IMG/VR virus record: IMGVR_UViG_2721755676_000006
Direction: 5' to 3' (one strand)
Length of the DNA: 36,332 nt
DNA from: a virus
Taxonomy: Duplodnaviria; Heunggongvirae; Uroviricota; Caudoviricetes
Below, piece by piece: positions 7,822 to 28,155 of this stretch. The notes below the pieces were generated by a model that worked only from the letters and a program-made list of their open reading frames with translations, was not told the origin of the DNA and made no database searches. Position 1 is the first letter of the stretch; every line of letters begins with the position of its first letter. The position numbers and the translations under genes are program-made.

Positions 7822-8250
7822 CGTTGGCCCCGCTTCTCTGAATCGCTTTATACCGCCATTCCAGCACTTCGGTCAGCGGCATAACGTCAGTAACGGATGG
7901 CGGCCAGTGAAAAATGGTGGCGATATCTGCCACCAGATCGTCAACCGTCAGGCTGTCGGTAAACCGGCAAGCACCGACTTCTTCAACAAAAAAGTGACAA
8001 CCTCAACCGACATGGCAGTGAGATCTGCCGGGTCCATCTCTGCAATTTCCTGTGCAGTCAGTACCGGACTGGAGATGCGGGGGATCACGGTCATCATCGC
8101 GTTCACATCCATATCCATAATGGCCTGCAGGCGTGTACCGCGCAGCGCACCGGACTGCGGTTTACGCAGCACAATTTCGGTAATTTCTGTTTTACCGCGC
8201 TTGATAGGGGTATCCAGTTGAATGGTCTTTTCAGTCTGCTTATCGCTCAT
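7814..8250 (-). CDS. E': tail assembly chaperone E+E' made by programmed -1 ribosomal frameshift
   Basis: Slippery heptamer T_TTT_TTG in the E frame at 7987-7993 (minus strand); the -1 frame is open for 58 codons to TAA at 7814-7816, overlapping the T start codon. Confidence 0.65.
7948..8250 (-). CDS. E: tail assembly chaperone E (zero-frame product)
   Basis: 100-aa ORF directly upstream of T, equivalent to P2 gpE / lambda G. Confidence 0.8.
   Translation of the reverse strand: MSDKQTEKTIQLDTPIKRGKTEITEIVLRKPQSGALRGTRLQAIMDMDVNAMMTVIPRISSPVLTAQEIAEMDPADLTAMSVEVVTFLLKKSVLAGLPTA
7987..7993 (-). other. programmed -1 frameshift slippery site TTTTTTG
   Basis: Read directly: minus-strand codons ACT TTT TTG in the E frame; downstream -1 frame has no stop until 7814. 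Confidence 0.6.
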
Positions 8251-8304
8251 TTTGTTGTCCTGTAAATTGGGTTCTGGCGCGGTATCCCGCGCCGTTCAGA
8301 TAGA

Positions 8305-8820
8305 TCAGAGGCCGAGGGCGTTGCGGTGCGCTTCCATCAGGTCTACACCGTCCACAATCTCCACCATGTTGATAAGGTCCACTTCATAGAGCACCTCACC
8401 ATTGATGGTCAGCTTCGCGTAGCTGTTGGTACTGGTCACTTTGGTGGTGTTGCTTTCGCCCGTCTTCCACTCGCCGGAATCCACTTCTTTGTGACGTCCA
8501 CGCACCACAAGCTCCACAGCCTGCACTTCCCCGGTATCGTCACGCTGGATAGAGCCGGTAAAGCGCAGCTGGATGCCATCCACCGTGGCTTTGCCCATCT
8601 GCTTAAACAGCAGCAGTTCAGTACCACCAATGGAAAATTCTGTATCCAGTGCACTGTCATCCAGTCCCAGATCCACATCCACCGCCCCCGGCATTCCGCC
8701 ACCGCGATACTTCTCATATTTGCGGGTGAATTTCGGCAGCGTCAGCGACTCAACGATCCCCTGCCAGTTGTTCCCGTCGTTAAACAGGTTCAGGTGTTTT
8801 AATTTGCGTGGTAAAGCCAT
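8305..8820 (-). CDS. FII: major tail tube protein
   Basis: 171-aa ORF, P2 FII-like, immediately downstream of the sheath gene. Confidence 0.88.
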   Translation of the reverse strand: MALPRKLKHLNLFNDGNNWQGIVESLTLPKFTRKYEKYRGGGMPGAVDVDLGLDDSALDTEFSIGGTELLLFKQMGKATVDGIQLRFTGSIQRDDTGEVQAVELVVRGRHKEVDSGEWKTGESNTTKVTSTNSYAKLTINGEVLYEVDLINMVEIVDGVDLMEAHRNALGL

Positions 8821-8829
8821 GTTGTCCCC

Positions 8830-10002
8830 TTACGCGCTGACCTGGCTGGCAAAATTCACCAGGTACTGATCGGTGATGCGCTGGCGCAGCATCAGATTTT
8901 CAAGTGGCGGCACTGGCGTGTAGTCATAGTCGATGGTGAGTTTTCCGGCTTTCAGCGTGTCTTTGTCGTTCACCGACTCATCCAGCCAGCAATCACCACC
9001 AATGAGATAGCCTTGACTGACCAGGCTGCGCATTTTGGCGCGGATACCTTCGATAATGTCGCGGGCCAGCGACGGGTTAAGCGGTTTATCCACCGCCCAC
9101 ATGTGTGCTTCTGCCATCGTGTCCATCAGCACCTGCGCCGTGCGGGTGTAGTTTTCGAAGGCAAAGAGCGGGTCATCACTCAGGCAGCGGGAACCCCAGA
9201 AGCGGAAACCGTCTTTACGCACAAGTGTGGTGACGTCGTTCTGGTTCAGCAGACCTGCATCGGTTGCCGGGTCCTGCAGATCCCAGAACACATCTGCAGA
9301 AATTCCGGTGACACCGTTCACGCCCACGTTGGACAGGCTTTTGTGCCATCCGGTCTGCTCGTCAATTTTGGCGCGCAGACCAAGCGCACGGGCGGTGGCA
9401 TATGCCGTTGCTTCGGCATTCAGCACCGTGTCCCAGCCAGTAAAGTCAGGCCAGATCAGCATCCCTTCGCGCTGGCTGAAGTTTTCACGGTAAGTGATCG
9501 CCTCCTGTACCGTCTTGCAGCCATACGCTGACAGGTAAGCAAATCCACGCAGGCTTTGCGCCACGCTCAGCAACTCAGTAGCTACCGCCTTGGTGTCGTG
9601 GCCTGGCACGCCGAGAATGCGCGGTTTAACGCCGAGCTGAGCCTGTGCAGATAACAGGGCTTTCATACCTGTTTTTTTACCTTCAGCAGTCACTGCGCCG
9701 ATGATATTGGTCGTGGTTTCGTCTTCCGTTTCACCCTGCGGCACACGCACAACAACGGTCACGGGTTTTGCCTGGTCAGCGATGGCATCCAGCGAACGAG
9801 CCAGCGTGCCTGACTCACCCGCTTTACCGCTGGCAGTCAGCACATCAGTGATCAGCACGGGTTTATTAAGAGGAAACATTTTTGCATCGGCATCATCGCC
9901 CGTGCAGACCATACCCACGATGGCGGTGCTCACCGTGGTAATGGATCGGGTGCCTTCGTTGACTTCAACAACGCGCACCCCGTGGTGGTAATCCTGAGCC
10001 AT
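8830..10002 (-). CDS. FI: contractile tail sheath protein
   Basis: 390-aa ORF, P2 FI-like; ATG at 10002 preceded by AGGAGG. Confidence 0.9.
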
Positions 10003-10077
10003 AGTGGCGAACCTCCTGATTGGATTAGGCTTCGCCCTATGTTGAAGTGATTGTGCCTGACAAACAGCTAAGCGCAG

Positions 10078-10097
10078 TTGTACCGTTATTCACACAA
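10078..10097. promoter_or_regulatory. candidate Ogr-dependent late promoter element (TTGT-N12-ACAA dyad) for the FI-FII-E-T-U-D operon
   Basis: TTGTACCGTTATTCACACAA read directly, about 80 bp upstream of the FI start; the same dyad recurs upstream of V and O. Confidence 0.4.
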
Positions 10098-10144
10098 AAT
10101 GACGGTATTTGTCTGCTTGCAGGGATAATCAAAATTATGCTGAT

Positions 10145-10711
10145 TCAGGGGGATTCATTGCTCTTATTTGCCGGAAATTTTCTATAAATGGTAGAAACGC
10201 CTACATCAAAAATCAGTGCAATACGCTGTCTTGATTCTCCGGCCTCGAGTAAACGTCCAATCTGTGCCCACTGTTCAGTGGTCAACTTAGGACGGCGTCC
10301 ACCTACTCTGCCTTTGGCACGAGCTGCAGCCAGCCCTGCCCTGGTACGTTCAACTATCAGTTCGCGTTCCATTTCAGCCAGGGCCCCCATGACATGAAAA
10401 AAGAAACGGCCCATTGGGGTGCTGGTATCAATACTGTCAGTCAGGCTTCGGAAATTCACGCCACGCTGACGCAACTCTTCTATCAGCGTAACAAGATGCC
10501 GCATACTGCGCCCCAACCTGTCTAGCTTCCAGACAACCAGCGTGTCTCCTGCCGATAGTGTCCTGAGCAGTTTTTTCAGCCCCGGTCTGTCGGACTTAGT
10601 GCCACTGATTTTATCCTCAAAAATCCGCTCACATCCCGCGCAGTTCAGTGCATTACGTTGCAAATCGGTGTTCTGGTCATTTGTTGACACGCGTACATAG
10701 CCAATAAGCAT
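10145..10711 (-). CDS. serine DNA invertase (Hin/Gin/Pin/Cin family)
   Basis: 188-aa ORF with N-terminal resolvase catalytic motif (YVRVSTNDQ), C-terminal HTH (GVSTIYRKF); adjacent to the tail-fibre genes. Confidence 0.9.
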   Translation of the reverse strand: MLIGYVRVSTNDQNTDLQRNALNCAGCERIFEDKISGTKSDRPGLKKLLRTLSAGDTLVVWKLDRLGRSMRHLVTLIEELRQRGVNFRSLTDSIDTSTPMGRFFFHVMGALAEMERELIVERTRAGLAAARAKGRVGGRRPKLTTEQWAQIGRLLEAGESRQRIALIFDVGVSTIYRKFPANKSNESP

Positions 10712-10766
10712 GATTATCCCCCTGACTAAAAACCGGGGATGATGCCAGTTAGCTGTTACCTCTGCA

Positions 10767-10792
10767 TTTTCTTAAACGTTGGTTTGGGAGAA
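10767..10792. repeat. invertase crossover site B (26 bp, two 12-bp half-sites around a 2-bp core)
   Basis: TTTTCTTAAACG-TT-GGTTTGGGAGAA; the 14 bp 10779-10792 are an exact inverted copy of 12363-12376. Confidence 0.7.
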
Positions 10793-11122
10793 GCCAGATA
10801 TATCATTCAGCGAGGAGCTAATGCCAATGGTGCATGGATTCGCTGGTCAGATGGTGCAATAGAAGTCTTTGGAACGGGTGGGTCTAATGATAATGGACTG
10901 GCTAAAGTCGTTTACCCAATTGCACTGCCTAAACTTTCACGTTTTATCAGTATCGCGGAAAGAATAAGAACAGATTACGAGAGCACACCTAATAATGTTC
11001 ACGTTTCAATGATCGTGGATGATCAGGTAACAAATACCGGTTTTTATGCCCGCTGCCAGATGTACGACGGCAGACCATCATCAAATGCTTTTTCCTGGAG
11101 GGTTTATTGTGCGCCTGTTTAA
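10781..11122 (+). CDS. alternative tail-fibre C-terminal exon (no own start; fused in-frame to the H N-terminus after inversion)
   Basis: Reading frame runs in-frame through site B (..VGLGEARYI..) for about 109 codons to TAA at 11120-11122; the H frame across site A reads ..TYLGLGEG.. Confidence 0.6.
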   Translation, partial: GLGEARYIIQRGANANGAWIRWSDGAIEVFGTGGSNDNGLAKVVYPIALPKLSRFISIAERIRTDYESTPNNVHVSMIVDDQVTNTGFYARCQMYDGRPSSNAFSWRVYCAPV

Positions 11123-11306
11123 TCCAGTTACTTTGACTGAAGTAATCCCCGGTCTTCATGATGTGACCGGGGCTATTGAATTACCGGAGGACAACTGGTT
11201 TTTTACTATGACAGAAATTCCTCAGGGCATGGAGCTAACAATTAATGAGAAAGGGGAACCAATATTGATTGAGGTTAATCAGTCTCAGGGAAAGCAGGCC
11301 AAATAA
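11109..11306 (+). CDS. short alternative tail-fibre assembly protein candidate (tfa', about 65 aa, GTG start)
   Basis: GTG at 11109 preceded by GGAGG; overlaps the end of the alternative exon by 14 nt and the 3' end of minus-strand tfa by 32 nt; unusually short. Confidence 0.35.
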   Translation: MRLFNPVTLTEVIPGLHDVTGAIELPEDNWFFTMTEIPQGMELTINEKGEPILIEVNQSQGKQAK

Positions 11307-11880
11307 TATCAGGCGCGGTGCTGGTATCTGTTGCCGTCACCGCGTCAATGTAATCCAGCACGGCGTTAAGCCGGGTTGTTTCTGCCTGCATCAGCTTCCG
11401 TCCGGCCTGTAATTTCAGCTGAATCAGACTGATGGAAGCCATTGCAGCATCAATCAGTGACTGACGCTGTGCTTCTGCCGTGTCTACTGCGGCGCTATGC
11501 TGTGCCTCAGTATCGGTCACCCATTTCTCACCATCCCATTTATCGTATGGTGTTAACGGGGCGATAGTTGTGGTATTTTCAGGGTAATCACCCGGAGCTG
11601 TGATTTCTTTTGACTCTCCCGTTTTGGTGCTATAGACGATTTCACCGCGATGGTCTGGCACATATTCCCATGAGTTAAAATTTGCAGAACGACAGATAGC
11701 ATAACCCACCTTATATGTGCCAGGGGCATCTAAACAGGAATATGCAGGAATACCGACACCAATGGCAAGATATTCAGTTGAAGCTGAAATATATTCCTGC
11801 GTCTCACTATCATAGTTATAAACGGTAATATCCCCCGACTTTGTAGCAATAAGCTCACTATTTAATATTGCTTTATCCAT
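11275..11880 (-). CDS. G: tail-fibre assembly protein (Tfa, P2 gpG / lambda Tfa family)
   Basis: 201-aa ORF ending ..DTSTAPDIIWPAFPETD, the conserved Tfa C-terminal signature; start overlaps H stop (TAATG). Confidence 0.85.
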   Translation of the reverse strand: MDKAILNSELIATKSGDITVYNYDSETQEYISASTEYLAIGVGIPAYSCLDAPGTYKVGYAICRSANFNSWEYVPDHRGEIVYSTKTGESKEITAPGDYPENTTTIAPLTPYDKWDGEKWVTDTEAQHSAAVDTAEAQRQSLIDAAMASISLIQLKLQAGRKLMQAETTRLNAVLDYIDAVTATDTSTAPDIIWPAFPETD

Positions 11881-13424
11881 TATGCTGCTCTCACGATATA
11901 GTTAAATGCAATGTTTCGAGGGCGATTCTCTGATGCTGTTGGTACAACCCTGGATGCATCAAAACTGAATCCTGTGTAAGGGGTATTTTTTGTTTCATAT
12001 GTGCCTAGGTTATTATAGATATTTCGCGTAGCTTGAGATGCTAAGGCAAAAGCACCAGTACCAGTCTGTAACCTGAAAGTTGCTGAATCAATGGTGCCTT
12101 TAACTTCATTTATAAAGCCTGTTATATTCCGAATGGTATCTCCCTGTGACGAAAGCAAGCTACGGTTAGTATCAATCCCTCTTCCATCATCCCAGCCACG
12201 AATAAACTCACCGCGTAAATCAGGCAATTTATTTGTCGGGTAAACCTTTGCCAGTTCCGGGTATTCTTCAGCAGAAAAAGCCGCCCCGTTGCATTTCAGC
12301 CAGCCTGTTGGCGGAGTGGCGGAAGGCCACGGAACAGGCACGCCAACGGGTAATGCCGAACCTTCTCCCAAACCAAGGTATGTGAGAAGACCAGCTACAT
12401 CCTTTCCACTCAAATTAGTCAGCGTATTGTCCAGCGGTTGTTTACCTGCCAGCGCATTAAGCATTGTCGTGGCAAAGTTCGGATCATTCCCCAGTGCCGC
12501 CGCCAGTTCGTTCAGTGTATCCAGTGCCGCAGGTGCAGAACCCACCATTCCTGCAATCGCCGATTTCACAAAAGCCGTAGTGGCAATCTGTGTATTATTG
12601 ACCGACTGCGCCGCCGTAGGGGCTGTTGGCGTTCCGGTGAGTGCCGGACTCGACAGCGGCGCTTTCAGTGCCAGCGCATTGTTAATGGTGGTACTGAATT
12701 TCGGATCATTGTTAATGGCTACGGCTATTTCTTTCAGCGTGTCCAGCGTGGCTGGCGCACCATTAATAAGAGCCGTCAGTGCCGCCTGAACAAATGCGGT
12801 GGTCGCAAGCTGCGTGGTATTATTCCCCGCCGCTGGCGTTGGCGCTTTGGGGGTTCCGGTAAACGTTGGACTTTCTTTGGGTGCATACTGTGAATGCGGG
12901 TCCGGCGCGGCAAGATGTTTTGCCATCAGGTCATCCACGTACACCTTCAGCTCCAGTGCCTTGTCATCCACATACTTGCGGGTTGCCAGCACTACAGCAG
13001 GGTCGATTTTCAGGGTGATATTGTCCGTGCTGCTGGTAATCAGCACCATGCGCACGGTCTGGGTACGCCCGCTGCCTTCAGCCAGTTGCGGCTTATAGCT
13101 TTCCGGGCAGTTGCCCACGGCAATCAATGCCCCGGACTCATCAAACAGGCCCACTTCACGTATCCACCAACCGCCCTCGTTTTCAGGGATCACCTGTTCG
13201 GCAATAATCTGGCTGCTGTTCTGCGGGTCGATATAGAGCATATTCAGCGCAGCCCGGCGTTTCTCATTTACCAATGCTGTCTGCTTTGCGTCCGGCGTTG
13301 GCAATGTTCCGCCGCCATCGCCGACCGCCATATGGGTAATTTTTAAAGGCACACCGAGCGCGGCGGCGCTGGCAAGTTTCGCCGCGCCAATATCCGTCAG
13401 CAGGGTATAAAATTTTGTGCTCAT
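11880..13424 (-). CDS. H: tail fibre protein (current orientation)
   Basis: 514-aa ORF with conserved N-terminal attachment region and variable C-terminus; crossover site A lies at about codon 350. Confidence 0.9.
   Translation of the reverse strand: MSTKFYTLLTDIGAAKLASAAALGVPLKITHMAVGDGGGTLPTPDAKQTALVNEKRRAALNMLYIDPQNSSQIIAEQVIPENEGGWWIREVGLFDESGALIAVGNCPESYKPQLAEGSGRTQTVRMVLITSSTDNITLKIDPAVVLATRKYVDDKALELKVYVDDLMAKHLAAPDPHSQYAPKESPTFTGTPKAPTPAAGNNTTQLATTAFVQAALTALINGAPATLDTLKEIAVAINNDPKFSTTINNALALKAPLSSPALTGTPTAPTAAQSVNNTQIATTAFVKSAIAGMVGSAPAALDTLNELAAALGNDPNFATTMLNALAGKQPLDNTLTNLSGKDVAGLLTYLGLGEGSALPVGVPVPWPSATPPTGWLKCNGAAFSAEEYPELAKVYPTNKLPDLRGEFIRGWDDGRGIDTNRSLLSSQGDTIRNITGFINEVKGTIDSATFRLQTGTGAFALASQATRNIYNNLGTYETKNTPYTGFSFDASRVVPTASENRPRNIAFNYIVRAA
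12363..12388. repeat. invertase crossover site A inside gene H
   Basis: TTCTCCCAAACC-AA-GGTATGTGAGAA, an imperfect palindrome; first 14 bp identical to the reverse complement of site B. Confidence 0.7.
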
Positions 13425-14026
13425 GGATTCACTCTCATTGTGTCAATAACATGGACCGCCCCGCCTTCATGCGCGGTGCCACCGGAAATAATTGTTTCGT
13501 TGATATACGGATAGATCGTGATTTCTTCGCCAAGATAGCTGGCGGCTCCCACCCAATGCGGGCCGCTGGTCTGCAGATTGATGGACATGCCGATCATGTG
13601 ACGGCTACATGGTTTGGCATCGCTTATCAGTCGCTCAAGTTCCAGATAGGTATCTTCAGTGATGCCCTGGTCCTGCACGCCGATATCCAGGCGAAACGTG
13701 CCCGGTGCCTCTCCGGTCTGCCACCACTCAATAATGCGGATCAGAAAGCCGAACGGCTCCACCACCCGCCGCACGGCACTGGTGGTCCCTTTATGCTGAT
13801 GAATATAAAAAGCATCCTTCACCACCTGGCGCTTGACGCTTTCTGTCCAGCCCTCGTCCCAGCGATCCACAGAGAACGCCCAGGCGAGATAAGGCAGGAA
13901 ACTGACCGGACAGGTTGCCGGATTCCACAAGTCACGAAGCGGCACCTGCAGATCAGAAATCCCGCTGCAGGTTTGCGCCAGTCGGCGCTCCAGTGGTGTT
14001 GAACCCGGTGGCAGCAGACTATTCAT
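13421..14026 (-). CDS. I: baseplate protein I
   Basis: 201-aa ORF starting MNSLLPPGSTPLERRL, P2 gpI-like; stop overlaps H start. Confidence 0.85.
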   Translation of the reverse strand: MNSLLPPGSTPLERRLAQTCSGISDLQVPLRDLWNPATCPVSFLPYLAWAFSVDRWDEGWTESVKRQVVKDAFYIHQHKGTTSAVRRVVEPFGFLIRIIEWWQTGEAPGTFRLDIGVQDQGITEDTYLELERLISDAKPCSRHMIGMSINLQTSGPHWVGAASYLGEEITIYPYINETIISGGTAHEGGAVHVIDTMRVNP

Positions 14027-14927
14027 CCGTTCCTCCGTTGGTTACGCTCCACTGCGTACATGATGCCGCCTGTGTTTTGTTCAGGACCACATCCGCCAGA
14101 GGAGAAGCCAGCTCCACACGCTGCACACCCTCAACATGCAGGGCGGCAAAGATGGCGCTACGGCGAATATCCCGACCAAGACGCGTCTGACTGGCGATGT
14201 ACTTCTGCAGGCTGGCTTTTGCCGCTGCCATTACCGGCTCTGCTTCCGGTCCCGGATAGAGAAAAATGGTGGCTTCCACGCGATACGGGATGATTTCTGC
14301 GCTGCGAACCGTAAGACGGTCAGCCACCGGGCGAACGTTCTCACTGTTCAGAGCTTTTTCCACCACGTCCAGCAGGTCTTTTTCTGCAGTTCCATCGCCT
14401 TCGCGGCTAAGGACAGTCAGTACCACCTCTGCAGGTGCCGGGCTGGTTGCACTGGCATCCGCCACCCGACCGTCGGCACTTCGGGCATGAAATTCATAAG
14501 CTGCAGTTGGCCCCGCAACTGAAAGCCCTTCAAAGGCTGCAGGCACACGCAGGCGTAACGCTTCATCGCTTTCCATCACAGCTGCAACGGGCGGCACAGC
14601 GTCATTATCAGCAGGCGTCACCGTCAGGCGTTTCACGTTGTAGTTGGCAGCGAGCTGGTCAAGATCGCTGCCCATCGCGTAAGCCACCATCACAGCCTGC
14701 GCGGCTTCGTTAATGCGCTGGCGCAGAAGCAACTCACGGTAAGCGTTCTCCTGCAGCAATTTGGTGACGGGTTCAGATTCCAGTTCCAGCGTGCGGATCA
14801 CTGCTTCCTGCTCATCTTTCGGATGAAGCGCAACAAATTCGGCCTTGCGTTCGGCAAGCAGCGTCTCAAAGTCCGGCACATCCACAATCTGCGGCGCAGG
14901 CAACTGCGAAAGGTCAATCACTGCCAT
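14019..14927 (-). CDS. J: baseplate assembly protein J
   Basis: 302 aa from ATG at 14927 (MAVIDLSQLPAP..), P2 gpJ-like; ORF track start 14966 trimmed. Confidence 0.85.
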   Translation of the reverse strand: MAVIDLSQLPAPQIVDVPDFETLLAERKAEFVALHPKDEQEAVIRTLELESEPVTKLLQENAYRELLLRQRINEAAQAVMVAYAMGSDLDQLAANYNVKRLTVTPADNDAVPPVAAVMESDEALRLRVPAAFEGLSVAGPTAAYEFHARSADGRVADASATSPAPAEVVLTVLSREGDGTAEKDLLDVVEKALNSENVRPVADRLTVRSAEIIPYRVEATIFLYPGPEAEPVMAAAKASLQKYIASQTRLGRDIRRSAIFAALHVEGVQRVELASPLADVVLNKTQAASCTQWSVTNGGTDE

Positions 14928-15273
14928 TCTCTGCTCCTGTTGATACGGAAAGGGAAACAGGCACACCGTTATTACGCCGCCCGCTCAGCTCCACCACCAT
15001 TGAACCGTCAAAATGGCTGTTGATGGTGATGGAATCCAGCGTCAGCCGTGGCTCCCAGCGACTCAGCGCCACATACACTGCCGACATGACCTGCAGGCGT
15101 AACGCCGGATTTTGTGGCTGGTCTATCAGTGCCGACAGCAGGGAACCATATTCACGGCGAGCAATGCGGCTACCCTGCGGCGTCAGCAGAATGTCCCGCA
15201 CCGACTGGCGCAGATGGTCAATATCAGCAATGGCTTTGCCGCTGGTATTGTTCATCCCGCTATAAAGCGTCAT
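14914..15273 (-). CDS. W: baseplate wedge protein W (gp25-like)
   Basis: 119-aa ORF, P2 gpW-like (..GSRIARREYGSLL..). Confidence 0.85.
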   Translation of the reverse strand: MTLYSGMNNTSGKAIADIDHLRQSVRDILLTPQGSRIARREYGSLLSALIDQPQNPALRLQVMSAVYVALSRWEPRLTLDSITINSHFDGSMVVELSGRRNNGVPVSLSVSTGAENGSD

Positions 15274-15848
15274 ACCGGGCCTCCGGTTGTGTCGCCGCCT
15301 TTCAGAACGCCAGTATGCTGATGCGCATCAACCACGATCCCGTTAGAACTCATCGCTCCGCCGCCCTGGGTAACGCCACCATTGATCACCACTTCGCTGT
15401 TAATACGCGTGCGGTCAGCCTCCAGTACAAACTCACTGGTTTTCATGGTGATGTTGTCAGCGGCCTCAATGACCATTGATTTGATGCCCCTGACATACCA
15501 GCGCCCGGTGGCGGGTTCGTATTCAAACCAGCCACCGTCAGGATGTTCTGTCACGCAGGCGTCCGCCGACGTCGACGGTGGTGCGAACTGATTCGAATAG
15601 ACAGCGGGCAGCGCAAAGGCGGTTTCCAGATTGCCGCCCAGACTCAGCAGCACCACCTGCTCACCTTCCGATGGTCGCCACCATGTGCGGGCATTCCCGG
15701 CACGCAGCGTCAGCCAGCTAATCCAGTTGGTTTCAAGCTCGCCCGTTTTCACCCGGCAAAGCCAGTTTTCCCTGTCCACTTCGGTGACTACCCCTGTGCG
15801 AATCAGGTTGGTGATAAGGCGCATGATTTCGGTTAATTGTGCGTTCAT
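15270..15848 (-). CDS. V: baseplate spike/hub protein V
   Basis: 192-aa ORF, P2 gpV-like; first gene of the V-W-J-I-H-G operon. Confidence 0.85.
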   Translation of the reverse strand: MNAQLTEIMRLITNLIRTGVVTEVDRENWLCRVKTGELETNWISWLTLRAGNARTWWRPSEGEQVVLLSLGGNLETAFALPAVYSNQFAPPSTSADACVTEHPDGGWFEYEPATGRWYVRGIKSMVIEAADNITMKTSEFVLEADRTRINSEVVINGGVTQGGGAMSSNGIVVDAHQHTGVLKGGDTTGGPV

Positions 15849-15893
15849 AGGGAAAGGTTGCCATCAGGGGAAGAAAGGCGGCAGTGCTGCAAC

Positions 15894-15913
15894 TTGTATC
15901 AGTGCTGATACAA
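15894..15913. promoter_or_regulatory. candidate Ogr-dependent late promoter dyad upstream of V
   Basis: Perfect palindrome TTGTATCAGTGCTGATACAA in the S-V intergenic gap. Confidence 0.4.
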
Positions 15914-15916
15914 AGA

Positions 15917-16363
15917 TCACCCTGCCAGCCATTGCAGAATCATGTCGCGGGTCATTGCCTCAACATCATCATTTACACCCAGCAGGCGGCGCTCTGCGTA
16001 ACGGACCTCCAGTCCTTTGCGACTGACGCGATCACGCAGGCCGTAATGGTGAACACGGGCAATACGCTGCACCTTACCTTCAAACTGTACGCTGGCAGAG
16101 TCGGCGCTGGCGGCAGTTTTCAGGTATTTTGTGGTGCGCAGCTTTGCAAACATCTGACGTTTGATGCGCCCCTTCTTGCTGCGTGCTGTTACCCTGCGCG
16201 GTTCATAACTACTGCCATCTGGATTGCGCTGCATCCTGATATTCTGCTGCTGTGTCCGGCGCAGTTCCTGCGCCAGCTGGCGCATCATGCGGCTTCTCGT
16301 GGCTGGTTCCAGATTCGCCAGCAAGGCACTCAGCCAGTCGTCCACCTTCTGCAGTTCAGCCAC
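15917..16363 (-). CDS. S: tail completion protein S
   Basis: 148-aa ORF, P2 gpS position and size; GTG start. Confidence 0.75.
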   Translation of the reverse strand: MAELQKVDDWLSALLANLEPATRSRMMRQLAQELRRTQQQNIRMQRNPDGSSYEPRRVTARSKKGRIKRQMFAKLRTTKYLKTAASADSASVQFEGKVQRIARVHHYGLRDRVSRKGLEVRYAERRLLGVNDDVEAMTRDMILQWLAG

Positions 16364-16787
16364 GTTTCACCGTCCACATTTCTTCAGGTGCATCAGGTTC
16401 CGCTATACCTTCAACGCTCGACACACTGCCGTCAGTGCTGACCAGCACACGCTCCGTCAGTTGCAGGTTCAGGCTGATATCACAGACATCGTTGCGCAGA
16501 ATATCCACCTCAAAGGTGAATAGCTTTTCCCGTAACGCCGGGTTATTGATGGCATCGGGCTGGTTATCCCTCAGCCACAGCAAAACCGGGGCCATCAGCA
16601 GATTCTGGTCGCCGCTGAAATCCTCAATCACCACGTTGAGGGTGTAACGGTACTCCCATGACATGGAGCTGGCCCCCGTGGCAACCAGCGAACCGTTATC
16701 CACAAACAGATGCAGTTTGTCCGGGTTATTGCGGACATAAGGCACCGCTTTATTGAGAGCGTGGCGCAGGGATTGTGGTTTGTTCAC
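16356..16787 (-). CDS. R: tail completion protein R
   Basis: GTG at 16787 with AGGAG RBS; ..NKPQSLRHALNKAV.. matches the P2 gpR N-terminus; ORF track start 16808 is TTG. Confidence 0.75.
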   Translation of the reverse strand: MNKPQSLRHALNKAVPYVRNNPDKLHLFVDNGSLVATGASSMSWEYRYTLNVVIEDFSGDQNLLMAPVLLWLRDNQPDAINNPALREKLFTFEVDILRNDVCDISLNLQLTERVLVSTDGSVSSVEGIAEPDAPEEMWTVKRG

Positions 16788-17040
16788 TGTTTCGCTCCTG
16801 ACACGCAATAATCATGTCCACTTTGTCTGCACAGACCGCCCAGGCGGCCTCCGTTTCATCCAGCAACGCATTCAGATCACCGTTAGTGCGCGGCGCTGCC
16901 TGCTCCAGCCGACACGGCGTCACTCGCGGACAACCACTGACGGTAAGCTGCACCTCCGGTGAGTGCCGGACGTTCCCGCAGCCGGATAATGTCAGCAGGC
17001 AAAGGAGTATCAGCCCAGCGACGTAAATCCTCGTTCTCAC
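16750..17040 (-). CDS. lysC: o-spanin lipoprotein LysC, overlapping lysB in another frame
   Basis: 96-aa ORF with signal peptide and lipobox LTLSGC; overlaps the lysB 3' end and R 5' end as in P2. Confidence 0.6.
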   Translation of the reverse strand: MRTRIYVAGLILLCLLTLSGCGNVRHSPEVQLTVSGCPRVTPCRLEQAAPRTNGDLNALLDETEAAWAVCADKVDMIIACQERNSEQTTIPAPRSQ

Positions 17041-24670: not shown

Positions 24671-24697
24671 ATGACACAAAAGTGTCATTTTATTTTA
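24671..24697. terminator. bidirectional hairpin ATGACAC-AAAA-GTGTCAT with flanking T-tract
   Basis: 7-bp inverted repeat between convergent Q and the AT-rich cargo operon; stop codon of the 174-aa ORF lies inside it. Confidence 0.4.
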
Positions 24698-25209
24698 TCA
24701 AGAGGCTTTACCCATTTCTCATGCAAATCCTCTAGCTTAAATGTATTATTTTTTGTCAACCATTTATGAACCAAAGCTATAATTTCTGACCTAGAATAAC
24801 GCTTATAATACAGTTCAGGATTTGCATTATATTGCTCTACTATATGTTGTCCAACTATTGCAAGTTGTCGATGGTCAATAGCGACTAAATCCCTATGCAT
24901 AGGATTTACAGCTTCAAACTTACTTTGCCCCGGATTGTTAGCTATCTGAACACCATTTTCTCTAAGCCAGTCCTCATCCAACCAAATAAGATCAATGATA
25001 TCAGGCGAGGACATAGTTGTAGCTAATGCAACAACGATTTTCTCGGCATCCTCTGTGGTAAAGTCAATTGAATCTGAAGCCCAAACAGAAAGAGTATTAT
25101 TCTTTGTTCGTGTACACCCAGTAATAGCATCGCCTGAAAAATTATCAGGCTGCAATGTTAAGTTAGGTTCCCATTTTGCAATTGATATTTTTCTTAACAA
25201 ATAACTCAT
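24685..25209 (-). CDS. hypothetical protein, third gene of AT-rich cargo operon
   Basis: 174-aa ORF; ATG overlaps the upstream stop (ATGA coupling); no recognisable motif. Confidence 0.6.
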   Translation of the reverse strand: MSYLLRKISIAKWEPNLTLQPDNFSGDAITGCTRTKNNTLSVWASDSIDFTTEDAEKIVVALATTMSSPDIIDLIWLDEDWLRENGVQIANNPGQSKFEAVNPMHRDLVAIDHRQLAIVGQHIVEQYNANPELYYKRYSRSEIIALVHKWLTKNNTFKLEDLHEKWVKPLDKIK

Positions 25210-25865
25210 TGCATGCGTCCCAAATAGTCTATGACAGATTTTTTATAATTATCCAACCAACTTATTCCAAAATCTCTTATTCCATTTAGATATAGTGCAA
25301 GTTGTGGATTGCCCCATCCTTCTGCCGCACGCAGAGCTGCTTCATTTACATATTTATCATCATAAACCGATGCAGCCAATATGATAGCATCAGCCTTATC
25401 ACCAAGAATTTCATATTCTAAGCAAGATGCAACACATATGAAATTTCGTAATTCATACGTATTTTTATTGCGAAAGAGGTCTAACCAAACCCGTTGAAAA
25501 ACCTCCCTAAAAACAAATGGATTTTCTTTGTAAAGGCCTTCAAGATAAAGTTGAGTCTTAGTGATTTCACCTTCAACATAATCTTCTGAAAATAGTAAAC
25601 TTATAGTCATTTTTTGTTTTTTAATGACTATGCTTTCAAAAGAATTATTTGAATCATCAATTTTTTTCAAAAAAAACGAGCCAGCTTGAACTGCTGTTTT
25701 ATTTGAATTTATTCTAATATCGTTAGCTACATAAGAGGATAATTTTTTTGAGTTATCAGATACTGATGAGTTAACCAAAAAACGGTCAAAGTTATTATCA
25801 TTAATAATAGTGTTAACTTCTGACGAAGCCTCAGACAAAATTATATTTCCATAATTTTTATCCAT
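25206..25865 (-). CDS. hypothetical protein, second gene of AT-rich cargo operon
   Basis: 219 aa from ATG at 25865 with GTGAGG RBS (track start 25904 trimmed); Asn/Ser-rich N-terminus, no recognisable motif. Confidence 0.55.
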   Translation of the reverse strand: MDKNYGNIILSEASSEVNTIINDNNFDRFLVNSSVSDNSKKLSSYVANDIRINSNKTAVQAGSFFLKKIDDSNNSFESIVIKKQKMTISLLFSEDYVEGEITKTQLYLEGLYKENPFVFREVFQRVWLDLFRNKNTYELRNFICVASCLEYEILGDKADAIILAASVYDDKYVNEAALRAAEGWGNPQLALYLNGIRDFGISWLDNYKKSVIDYLGRMQ

Positions 25866-25872
25866 GGCAGCC

Positions 25873-26568
25873 TCACTTATTCGTATAACGAGATAATTGC
25901 TCAATTAAATTGGCATTATTTTCTTGCAACTCACTAACAATAGAGTTCGCAGAATTAAAATCAAACCGAAGCGAATTATTTTCTGCCAATGTATTTGTAT
26001 CCACCTCAAAGTTTATTACTTCTGTTGGATGATTATTATTTACTAATGGAGTCTGAATGAAACAACGACGAACAGTACTCCCACTATTCACACTCTCATT
26101 TAAATTTTTCAAATTGACTCGCTCAACAATACGATTATCCCATTCAAATGGTTCTGCATTACGATGAGTGAATAGCTCTCTGTAAAGCCTGGAGTAATTA
26201 TCCTGACTATCATGATAAAAATATGAATTAATAACTGACAGTCTTGTCGCTTTTTTATTAGGGAATATTGACTGTAAAGACTTCATAATATCTTTAACTT
26301 TATTTATGAACTCTTCACTGGAACCGCCGACTCCATGAAAGACAATAGCCCCCAAGGGAAATTCAACCCGAAAATTTTGGTCAGGCGAAGTCATAATAAC
26401 TATTTGACGCTTTTCCCCTGTTAAAGCATTCAACTCCTGCCCAAACATGGGTAAAAGGGATAACGCAGCCAAATTAGACAACAGCATCGAAAGCACTGGC
26501 GGTGTAGCAGTGACATCAGAATTGTTTGTAAAATATGATGCTTGGTAATTTTGAAATAATAATTCCAT
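25873..26568 (-). CDS. hypothetical protein, first gene of AT-rich cargo operon
   Basis: 231-aa ORF with strong AGGAGGA RBS; soluble, no recognisable catalytic motif. Confidence 0.6.
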   Translation of the reverse strand: MELLFQNYQASYFTNNSDVTATPPVLSMLLSNLAALSLLPMFGQELNALTGEKRQIVIMTSPDQNFRVEFPLGAIVFHGVGGSSEEFINKVKDIMKSLQSIFPNKKATRLSVINSYFYHDSQDNYSRLYRELFTHRNAEPFEWDNRIVERVNLKNLNESVNSGSTVRRCFIQTPLVNNNHPTEVINFEVDTNTLAENNSLRFDFNSANSIVSELQENNANLIEQLSRYTNK

Positions 26569-26723
26569 TTTATCCTCCTGAACAATTCATGCGCCATTTG
26601 GCACGAACAATCATTCTTTCAGTATATTAGATTATCCACACAGCTACTAGTAGCCTAACGAAGAAACGGCATAACTGGTCTACTTCGGAAATCCAACAAC
26701 ATAATGGTACCAGCTTGCGCGCG

Positions 26724-26742
26724 CTCGTATCCCCGCCACGCC
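26724..26742 (-). other. candidate cos cohesive-end sequence (P2/186-like)
   Basis: Minus-strand GGCGTGGCGGGGATACGAG; the first 13 nt match my recollection of the 186/P2 cohesive-end consensus GGCG(T/A)GGCGGGGA. Confidence 0.4.
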
Positions 26743-27013
26743 TGCCCGCTTTATATAGTGGTTTTCATGCACCTGCATGACATAAGCAAAAGCCCGCCAT
26801 ACCTAGCAGGCCCCAACTAGAGCGATCCTTAAACGATCATGCGGATTCATGCAGTATAGACATGCAGTAGTTACGCCAAACCGTGTAGCGAGGCCACCTG
26901 CTAAAAATGTTCACGGAGTAACATTTGATCTCCACTGCAAAAAATGAAACTTTCGCTTTCACCAAATATAACAAGAGGTAATCTTTGGTGTTTTACACAG
27001 CAAACGGTGAGCC

Positions 27014-27595
27014 ATGAAAGTCAACATAAAACAGATTGTTGGAAATTGGGAATTAGGTCTTGCGATGGATAAACACAGCATCCGCAGCATTCCCATTGGT
27101 TACGATGAGTGGGGACATATGCGGTTTGAGACGGAGCGTACTGAGGTAGGCGAATCTCTTTTCCAGCTTAAATACCGTGACGATTGGTCACAAGTTAAGC
27201 CTTTAGCCCAATGCCTAGCAGAGCATGCCTTTCCTCATTTCAGCAATGTCGGGTTTATCGTTCCAATGGCTGCATCTAATCAGCGTGCACGCCAGCCAGT
27301 GACCGAAATAGCTCAGGAACTAGCCAAACTAGTTGGCAAACCATGCTTCGATGACCTCTTGTTGAAAGCCCCCGGCGGGGCATCGCTAAAGAACCTGAAT
27401 ACAAAAGAAGAGAAAATCACGGCGCTGGGTAATTCGTTCTCTGTTAATGACAGTATTGAGAATAATGGCAACTGGAATGTCCTTATCATTGACGACCTCT
27501 ACCATACAGGCGCATCTATGGAGGCTGCTTGTGCTGTGCTAAACGATTATACTAAGGTTAGAAGCATTTATGTTGCAGCTTTGACTTGGAGATAG
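27014..27595 (+). CDS. phosphoribosyltransferase (PRTase)-like protein
   Basis: 193-aa ORF with PRPP-binding-loop-like motif VLIIDDLYHTGASM near the C-terminus; AT-rich. Confidence 0.55.
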   Translation: MKVNIKQIVGNWELGLAMDKHSIRSIPIGYDEWGHMRFETERTEVGESLFQLKYRDDWSQVKPLAQCLAEHAFPHFSNVGFIVPMAASNQRARQPVTEIAQELAKLVGKPCFDDLLLKAPGGASLKNLNTKEEKITALGNSFSVNDSIENNGNWNVLIIDDLYHTGASMEAACAVLNDYTKVRSIYVAALTWR

Positions 27596-27597
27596 TG

Positions 27598-28155
27598 ATG
27601 ACTACGGTATTTGTTGCTGGTTCAATAACCATCAAAAACCTTGACACACTCATCGTGGATCGTCTGAAAAAAATTGTTAACTCGCGTTTTCGTATTGTAG
27701 TTGGTGATGCCAATGGTGTTGATTCATCTGTTCAACGCGTATTGCTAGAACTTGGATGTGAAAAAGCCACAGTATTCAGTAGCTCAGAAAAACCGCGCAA
27801 TAATCTTGGCTCATGGCCTGTACATGTAGTAAGTACTAGCCATGCAGCCGGCACTCGCGCGTTTTTCACTGCGAAAGATCTCAAAATGGCAGAAGAAGCC
27901 GATTATGGATTAATGGTTTGGGATACGAAGAGCACGGGTACTCTGAGTAACGTGATTGAGCTTCTTAAACGTAAAAAATACTCTGTCGTTTTTGTTAATA
28001 AATACAAAAAGTTCTTTATTATCAAATCTCCAGAGCACCTTGACGCTTTGATTAACTGCATGTCACCAGCCTCTTTGGAAAAAGCTGATGAAAAGATCAG
28101 ATTGCGCGAAAAAATCAACCAACTAAAAAACGAGCAAATCCAGATGTTTATGTGA
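27598..28155 (+). CDS. DprA/SLOG-like Rossmann-fold protein
   Basis: 185 aa from ATG at 27598 with GGAG RBS; motif RIVVGDANGVDSSVQRVLLELG resembles the DprA/LOG glycine-rich nucleotide-binding loop. Confidence 0.4.
   Translation: MTTVFVAGSITIKNLDTLIVDRLKKIVNSRFRIVVGDANGVDSSVQRVLLELGCEKATVFSSSEKPRNNLGSWPVHVVSTSHAAGTRAFFTAKDLKMAEEADYGLMVWDTKSTGTLSNVIELLKRKKYSVVFVNKYKKFFIIKSPEHLDALINCMSPASLEKADEKIRLREKINQLKNEQIQMFM

Follow-up and report, generated by a model that had tools for sequence, protein, structure and literature searches.

The DNA considered here is a stretch of 36,332 nt (IMG/VR record IMGVR_UViG_2721755676_000006), referred to below as the window, whose coordinates and strands are used throughout. 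It contains a P2-like prophage, the tail module of which includes a tail-fibre gene, a DNA invertase gene and, between them, a segment bounded by two recombination sites. We consider it highly probable that, within the tail-fibre operon, these elements constitute an active two-state inversion switch of the Fis/enhancer type, i.e., a member of the Hin/Gin/Cin/Pin/Fin (Din) family.

On the minus strand, the tail module has the gene order baseplate J and I, H, U, invertase and sheath FI, and the interval from U to the invertase gene contains two silent open reading frames (ORFs) on the plus strand. The tail-fibre gene H (11880-13424, minus strand) encodes a protein of 514 amino acids with matches to the Pfam families Phage_tail_fib and Collar. 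It can be divided into a constant N-terminal part, Sc (12377..13424, minus), which comprises codons 1-349 plus the first base of codon 350 and carries the Phage_tail_fib match at residues 1-150, and the currently expressed variable C-terminus, Sv (11880..12374, minus; residues 351-514), which contains a Collar domain and is similar to T4 gp12/gp37. The start codon of the next gene, U (11275..11880, minus), overlaps the stop codon of H in the sequence TAATG, and U is expressed in the present orientation. Its product of 201 amino acids is a tail-fibre assembly protein (Pfam Caudo_TAP, 6.6e-31; phrog_105 tail fiber assembly, 1.7e-95). The first silent ORF, Sv' (10781..11122, plus; the ORF may be read as 10778/10781-11122), is an alternative C-terminus of H of 113 codons, which begins with GLGEARY and ends with CAPV and the stop codon. 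The second one, U' (11109..11306, plus), lies 3' of Sv' and encodes 65 amino acids, with a GTG start codon and a GGAGGG Shine-Dalgarno sequence. The segment containing Sv, U, U' and Sv' measures 1598 bp from core to core (10779..12376), with 1594 bp between the cores. The invertase gene (10145..10711, minus; 188 amino acids) and the sheath gene FI (8830-10002, minus) follow.

Both recombination sites are 26 bp long. Site A (12363..12388) reads TTCTCCCAAACC AA GGTATGTGAGAA and has its core at 12375-12376, inside codon 350 of H, whilst site B (10767..10792) reads TTTTCTTAAACG TT GGTTTGGGAGAA with its core at 10779-10780; the reverse complement of the latter is TTCTCCCAAACC AA CGTTTAAGAAAA. A repeat search reported the arms as an inverted repeat of 27 nt (10767-10793 and 12362-12388) with 81% complementarity. 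The longest identical stretch within these arms is 15 bp, TTGGTTTGGGAGAAG at 10779-10793 and CTTCTCCCAAACCAA at 12362-12376, and it includes the AA/TT crossover core. The 14-mer TTCTCCCAAACCAA occurs at these two places only within the window, even with up to two mismatches allowed. Both sites match 17 of the 18 specified positions of TTNTCNNAAACCNNGGTTTNNGANAA, which we take to be the consensus of Din sites. The same scan also recovered known sites, namely gix at the boundaries annotated for the G segment of Mu and cix at the crossovers annotated for P7, which validates this consensus. No other sequence in the window matched at 15 or more of the 18 positions, and shuffled windows contained on average 0.03 such matches. 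A system with a third site and multiple inversions, like Min or a shufflon, was considered and rejected, since there are only two consensus matches in the window.

The position of the sites relative to the reading frames is as would be required for an exchange of the C-terminus of H. The core dinucleotide of site A occupies positions 2-3 of codon 350, where H reads LLTYLGLGEGS, and the silent exon reads VGLGEARY across site B. In silico inversion yields an open, in-frame H of 463 instead of 514 amino acids, with LLTYLGLGEARYII at the junction. Thus, both alternative 3' exons are in frame with the single constant 5' part, and the crossover falls within the fibre ORF. After codon 350, 164 residues, 160 of them unique, would be replaced by 113, of which 109 are unique. 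The initial annotation, made from the sequence alone, had proposed a Hin/Gin-family invertase next to two inverted 26-bp sites, the first located around codon 350 of H and the second 56 bp from the start of the invertase gene, with matching frames and a swap of about 165 for about 109 residues. All of this is borne out, the residue numbers being right within a few, and only the identical arm, given there as 14 bp, had to be extended to 15 bp.

The invertase is a Din-family serine recombinase of the Gin/Cin/Fin type. It matches the Pfam families Resolvase (2e-53) and HTH_7 (1e-15) and aligns from end to end with the crystal structure of Gin (3uj3; E=8e-93, residues 1-184). Its amino-acid identity is 86% to Fin of Fels-2, 79% to Cin of P1 and ~75% to Gin of D108 and the invertases of Mu-like phages, and residues Y5, R7, S9, D64, R65 and R68 are retained. 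Like gin in Mu, the gene is co-oriented with H and situated downstream of the invertible segment; its start codon is 56 bp away from site B.

A recombinational enhancer is predicted within the 5' end of the invertase gene, at 10626..10693 on the minus strand (gene nt 19-86). Two sequences matching the Fis consensus KNNYRNNWNNYRNNM, which is said to go back to work of Hubner & Arber from 1989, have their cores at 10675-10689 (TGTCAACAAATGACC, gene nt 23-37) and 10627-10641 (GCGCGGGATGTGAGC, gene nt 71-85). Their centres are 48 bp apart, a spacing found for seven pairs of such cores in the whole window, and the proximal centre is 97.5 bp from the core of site B. Both cores are found at the same gene positions in gin of Mu, cin of P7 and fin of Fels-2, and an enhancer is annotated at nt 19-86 of cin in the P7 record. 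When the four invertase genes were compared, the fraction of identical codons at conserved amino acids was 0.50 in codons 1-15 and 0.00-0.33, mostly ≤0.18, in the later bins of 15 codons, as expected for a cis element embedded in a coding sequence. The enhancer of Hin is described as a 65-bp element flanked by two Fis sites at its ends, which are ~47 bp apart, and as lying ~100 bp from a hix site, and the residues of Hin that contact Fis are R154 and L155 (PMC3798978). The latter align with R153 and L154 of the invertase described here, as deduced from the offset of the 1hcr match and read in the sequence. By analogy with the Din family, inversion would be expected to depend on Fis and on negative supercoiling.

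Genome comparisons indicate that inversion occurs in nature at exactly these sites. Complete E. coli genomes were scored when at least 80% of the region 10000-13500 matched either the window or its in silico flipped version; 57 of them have the orientation of the window and 33 the flipped one, with relatives being ~93-95% identical over the locus. In this collection, the best matches over most of the 3.5-kb locus are ~95% identical to the window, and the near-identical copies come from draft assemblies. Two pairs of near-isogenic strains, 61/64 and DG342-2/DG341-1, which are relatives with ~93% identity to the locus in the window, have opposite orientations. Comparison of the 5.5-kb loci of each pair shows a single difference, the exact reverse complementation of the segment, with the breakpoints lying inside the 15-bp arm TTGGTTTGGGAGAAG. 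Strains 61 and 64 carry the locus at the same record coordinates, and the genomes of DG342-2 and DG341-1 are of the same length. Even closer to the window are a prophage locus (L013) that is 99.97% identical to positions 8001-15500 and has the same orientation, and a sister locus, L019 (GCA_022974425.1), in which the flanks are collinear with the window and 10779-12379 is reversed. After un-flipping L019 at the cores, three single-nucleotide polymorphisms (SNPs) remain relative to the window in these 7.5 kb (8001-15500). All three fall outside the segment, the two sites and the invertase gene, the latter being nucleotide-identical. As this sister prophage is flipped at such a small distance and with an identical invertase, recent flipping is implied. 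Also at the protein level, both forms are on record: in a public protein collection, the predicted hybrid of 463 amino acids is found residue for residue on 14 contigs and the 514-residue form on 26. With the hybrid on these contigs, the flipped sister prophage and the two isogenic pairs, it is clear that both orientations exist; the initial annotation had named the detection of only a single one as an outcome that would speak against a switch. The possibility that the two orientations result from errors in assembly was rejected, because a clean, exact inversion is present in many independent assemblies. For P2-like prophages of E. coli, experiments have shown that inversion takes place within clonal cultures (Goldberg et al., 2014; PMC4272514). 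Programmed inversions are enriched in certain gene families, to which tail-fibre genes belong (PMC9881135).

Several other records touch on the orientation of this locus and its relatives. E. coli NCTC8623 (NZ_LR134234.1) contains two copies, at 13380-16922 and 4934125-4937667, which are ~22 kb apart across the origin of the record and have opposite orientations; they represent either a tandem prophage or the assembly of a population with mixed orientations. A related locus with an insertion of the IS3 family is found in both orientations in the lineage of E. coli W (NC_017664, NC_017635, KO11FL, HBUT-L, and NZ_CP026085 and NZ_CM135829, which are labelled DH5alpha), where inversion appears to persist. 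Over this related locus, the two records labelled DH5alpha match E. coli W/KO11FL, which suggests that they are mislabelled. One member of the protein cluster, from the E. coli W derivative KO11FL, is annotated as 'putative variable tail fiber protein'. Finally, phages that were deposited as infecting Klebsiella pneumoniae (OK490395 and others, Klebsiella phage Kp48xx) are ~96% identical to the E. coli prophage over 17 kb, which reflects either a broad host distribution or a wrong attribution of the host.

By analogy with the well-studied members of the family, dimers of the invertase would bind both 26-bp sites, and a synapse would form at the enhancer near the beginning of the invertase gene, to which Fis is bound. 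Cleavage at the AA/TT cores and rotation would then reverse the segment 10779-12376. In the sequenced orientation, the late operon would produce residues 1-350 of H followed by Sv, i.e., the 514-residue fibre with a collar-type tip, and then the Tfa chaperone U. In the flipped orientation, the same constant part would be joined to Sv' in a fibre of 463 residues with a weakly gp53-like tip, followed by the 65-residue U'. With two alternative fibre products, a population of lysogens would release virions with one of two receptor-binding tips, and this may serve as bet-hedging with respect to host range. Of this explanation, the anatomy, the continuity of the frames and the occurrence of inversion in nature at these sites are shown, whilst the dependence on Fis, the rate of flipping, different receptors for the two tips and the function of U' are inferred.

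Some points weigh against the interpretation as an active switch. Each site departs from the Din consensus at one position in its outer half; relatives shown to have inverted carry these departures too. No sigma-70-like promoter of the invertase gene was called between site B and the start codon, and a scan of 9900-13600 for promoters and terminators gave no more matches than were obtained in shuffled sequences. That the very copy in the window flips is suggested by its near-identical sister prophage rather than by this copy itself. Likewise, different receptors for the two tips are likely, as opposed to observed, and U' (11109-11306) has no match to Caudo_TAP, to Pfam or to any other family and no recognizable chaperone domain.

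The lack of a called promoter upstream of the invertase gene, and the reliance on the sister prophage for the flipping of this strain's copy, would also be compatible with a fossil of a switch, in which the architecture has been inherited but the copy no longer inverts at a meaningful rate, e.g., because the invertase is silent in the lysogen. The orientations in the databases would then be old, fixed states. However, the near-isogenic pairs, matched in record coordinates or genome length, differ by the inversion only, and L019 is flipped in spite of its three SNPs in 7.5 kb and its nucleotide-identical invertase gene. Moreover, the invertase, the sites and the enhancer are all intact, and we consider such a fossil very unlikely.

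Even less probable is that the main function of the inversion is directed toward the host, with a chimeric fibre protein blocking the adsorption of other phages. There is a precedent for this in the PinQ/StfE2 system of cryptic E. coli prophages, with StfE2 residing in e14 (PMC12529663), and the invertases of prophages can act in trans on segments of other prophages. Nevertheless, the prophage in the window appears to be complete: tail, baseplate, sheath and tape-measure genes, integrase and CI/CII are confirmed by Pfam, whilst capsid, portal, terminase and replication genes were assigned from ORF size and P2 gene order alone. In addition, H belongs to the late operon, and a lysogen does not normally express these genes. 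A defence role may exist as a side effect, but nothing observed for this prophage supports it. Inversion by general, RecA-dependent homologous recombination between short inverted repeats, without the invertase, is almost certainly not the explanation: the breakpoints can be placed only within the identical arm, a resolution that does not name the enzyme, but these 15 bp are below the roughly 20-30 bp of identity that efficient RecA recombination generally needs, the arms are Din sites matching at 17 of 18 positions beside an intact Din invertase gene and enhancer, and the same architecture recurs with many different cassettes.

An active Din-type switch being the preferred interpretation, its consequences depend on the two tips and the genes associated with them. 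In Sv, the Collar match of Pfam covers residues 361-408 of H, and the Protein Data Bank contains related structures of a short tail fibre (9cuy, 1e-29) and of gp37 (2xgf, 1e-14). Sv' weakly matches Gp53-like_C in Pfam and phrog_2557 (2.8e-15), and the comparison of Sv' with solved structures gave no match. Since Sv is collar/gp12-like and Sv' weakly gp53-like and without a solved relative, the two tips are, as judged from these comparisons, unrelated. Phages of Mu with the G segment in the (+) and (-) orientation differ in host range, and by analogy with the G segment of Mu and the C segment of P1, the inversion described here may also alter host range.

The accessory genes differ as well. The gene that follows Sv encodes a standard Tfa protein, whereas U', which follows Sv', is not recognizable as such. 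The initial annotation held that inversion swaps the expressed tail-fibre chaperone. It was right in that U is a Tfa protein and that the partner gene changes, but a role of U' as the alternative chaperone is suggested by its position only. Of the 123 homologues of U', 120 were listed; all of these are 46-91 amino acids long, most of them 57-73, and they span Escherichia, Enterobacter, Salmonella, Citrobacter, Hafnia, Xenorhabdus and Erwinia, with 17 invariant residues. The profile phrog_5400 has 145 positions, of which U' matches positions 1-66 only. This partial match raised the idea that U' is a recent truncation of a full-length Tfa protein, which was rejected, as the listed homologues are all short and conserved across genera. 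The convergent U and U' genes overlap at their 3' ends by 32 bp (11275-11306); in the cassettes of Cartapus, 500465-1 and H15, the overlap of the convergent accessory genes is 29 bp.

The segment behaves as a module. E. coli H15 (L008, NZ_CP010178.1) has this prophage at this ybjL attachment site too, with an invertible cassette that is entirely different; similarity to the window breaks off at 10794 and is found again from 12362 onward. Conversely, four Mu-like prophages (L014-L017, e.g., GCA_013799665.1, CP056933.1), with Mu Gp45/46/48 baseplate genes, share the Sv-U-U'-Sv' cassette and the greater part of the invertase gene with the window at 94-97% nucleotide identity. They match the window over 10262-12388, with an identical U protein, and the constant part of their fibre is much shorter. 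Site A marks the limit of their homology to the window, at 12379 or 12388. Also in this background, the cassette occurs in both orientations, as L014 is flipped relative to L015-L017. Such a distribution fits the long-known mosaicism of tail-fibre inversion modules. A more far-reaching proposal would be that the sites serve as portable junctions, by which the Sv-U-U'-Sv'-invertase module moves between unrelated phage backbones through intermolecular exchange catalysed by the invertase, and that U' represents a new, minimal class of fibre chaperones dedicated to the gp53-like tip. We regard this combination as doubtful; the boundaries of the cassettes are explained equally well by ordinary homologous recombination in the conserved flanks.

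The prophage begins at ~2890 in the window, beside the E. coli genes grxA, ybjM and ybjL, and the left flank is found with 100% identity in many E. coli chromosomes. The element is a P2-like (186/Fels-2-like) prophage inserted beside ybjL in E. coli. At the position of old/tin in P2, between the putative portal gene Q, assigned by its size and P2 gene order, and a DinI-like gene, the window contains a variable hotspot (24685-28155) with five ORFs, none of which has a match in Pfam. The ORF at 27014-27595 weakly matches the toxins ShosT (1.3e-8) and PsyrT (1.5e-7) in PADLOC, and together with the ORF at 27586-28155 it may form a two-gene defence system.

For those who work with such prophages, the significance of the locus is mostly limited to correct annotation. 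The silent exon Sv' and U' are currently labelled 'hypothetical protein' by the Prokaryotic Genome Annotation Pipeline. The prophage is able to present two receptor-binding tips, which is relevant when the host range of the induced phage has to be predicted. Furthermore, differences in orientation between the assemblies of isolates should be read as phase variation and carry no phylogenetic signal.

In comparison with known systems, the locus is a standard Din-family invertible tail-fibre segment of a kind already known, and both states of this particular allele have already been deposited. It is closest to the Fin system of Fels-2 in organisation and to the cix sites of P1/P7, with their AA/TT core, in site sequence. 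Fels-2, a P2-like prophage of Salmonella LT2, belongs to the same phage family and shares the gene order H, tfa, tfa', H', invertase and FI sheath, and it has two 26-bp Din sites, one of which is located within H, as in the window. It differs in the core, which is GA/TC rather than AA/TT, and in the cassettes: both accessory genes of Fels-2 are gpG-like, whereas one of the two in the window is U' with its 65 amino acids, and H' of Fels-2 is annotated as a probable pseudogene.

The G segment of Mu has the same order, S, U, U', S' and gin, with the invertase gene downstream of and co-oriented with the fibre gene, and also 26-bp sites and an enhancer in the 5' end of the invertase gene. However, Mu differs in being a transposable phage and in its tail module, its gix core is GA/TC, its G segment measures 3 kb, and both its accessory proteins are full-length Tfa proteins. 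The C segment of P1/P7 has the same core as the window and nearly the same inner half-site, TTCTCTTAAACC versus TTCTCCCAAACC, but cin lies at the opposite side, where its 3' end and cixL overlap, and the segment measures 4 kb and resides on a plasmid prophage. In the P2-like loci of enteropathogenic E. coli (EPEC) E2348/69 and in the P segment of e14 with its invertase PinE, tail-fibre orientations coexist in clonal cultures (Goldberg et al., 2014; PMC4272514). One EPEC locus has three inverted repeats and four states, in contrast to the two sites in the window, whilst one P2-like locus is a two-state system like the one described here; strains and cassettes differ from those of the window in all these cases.

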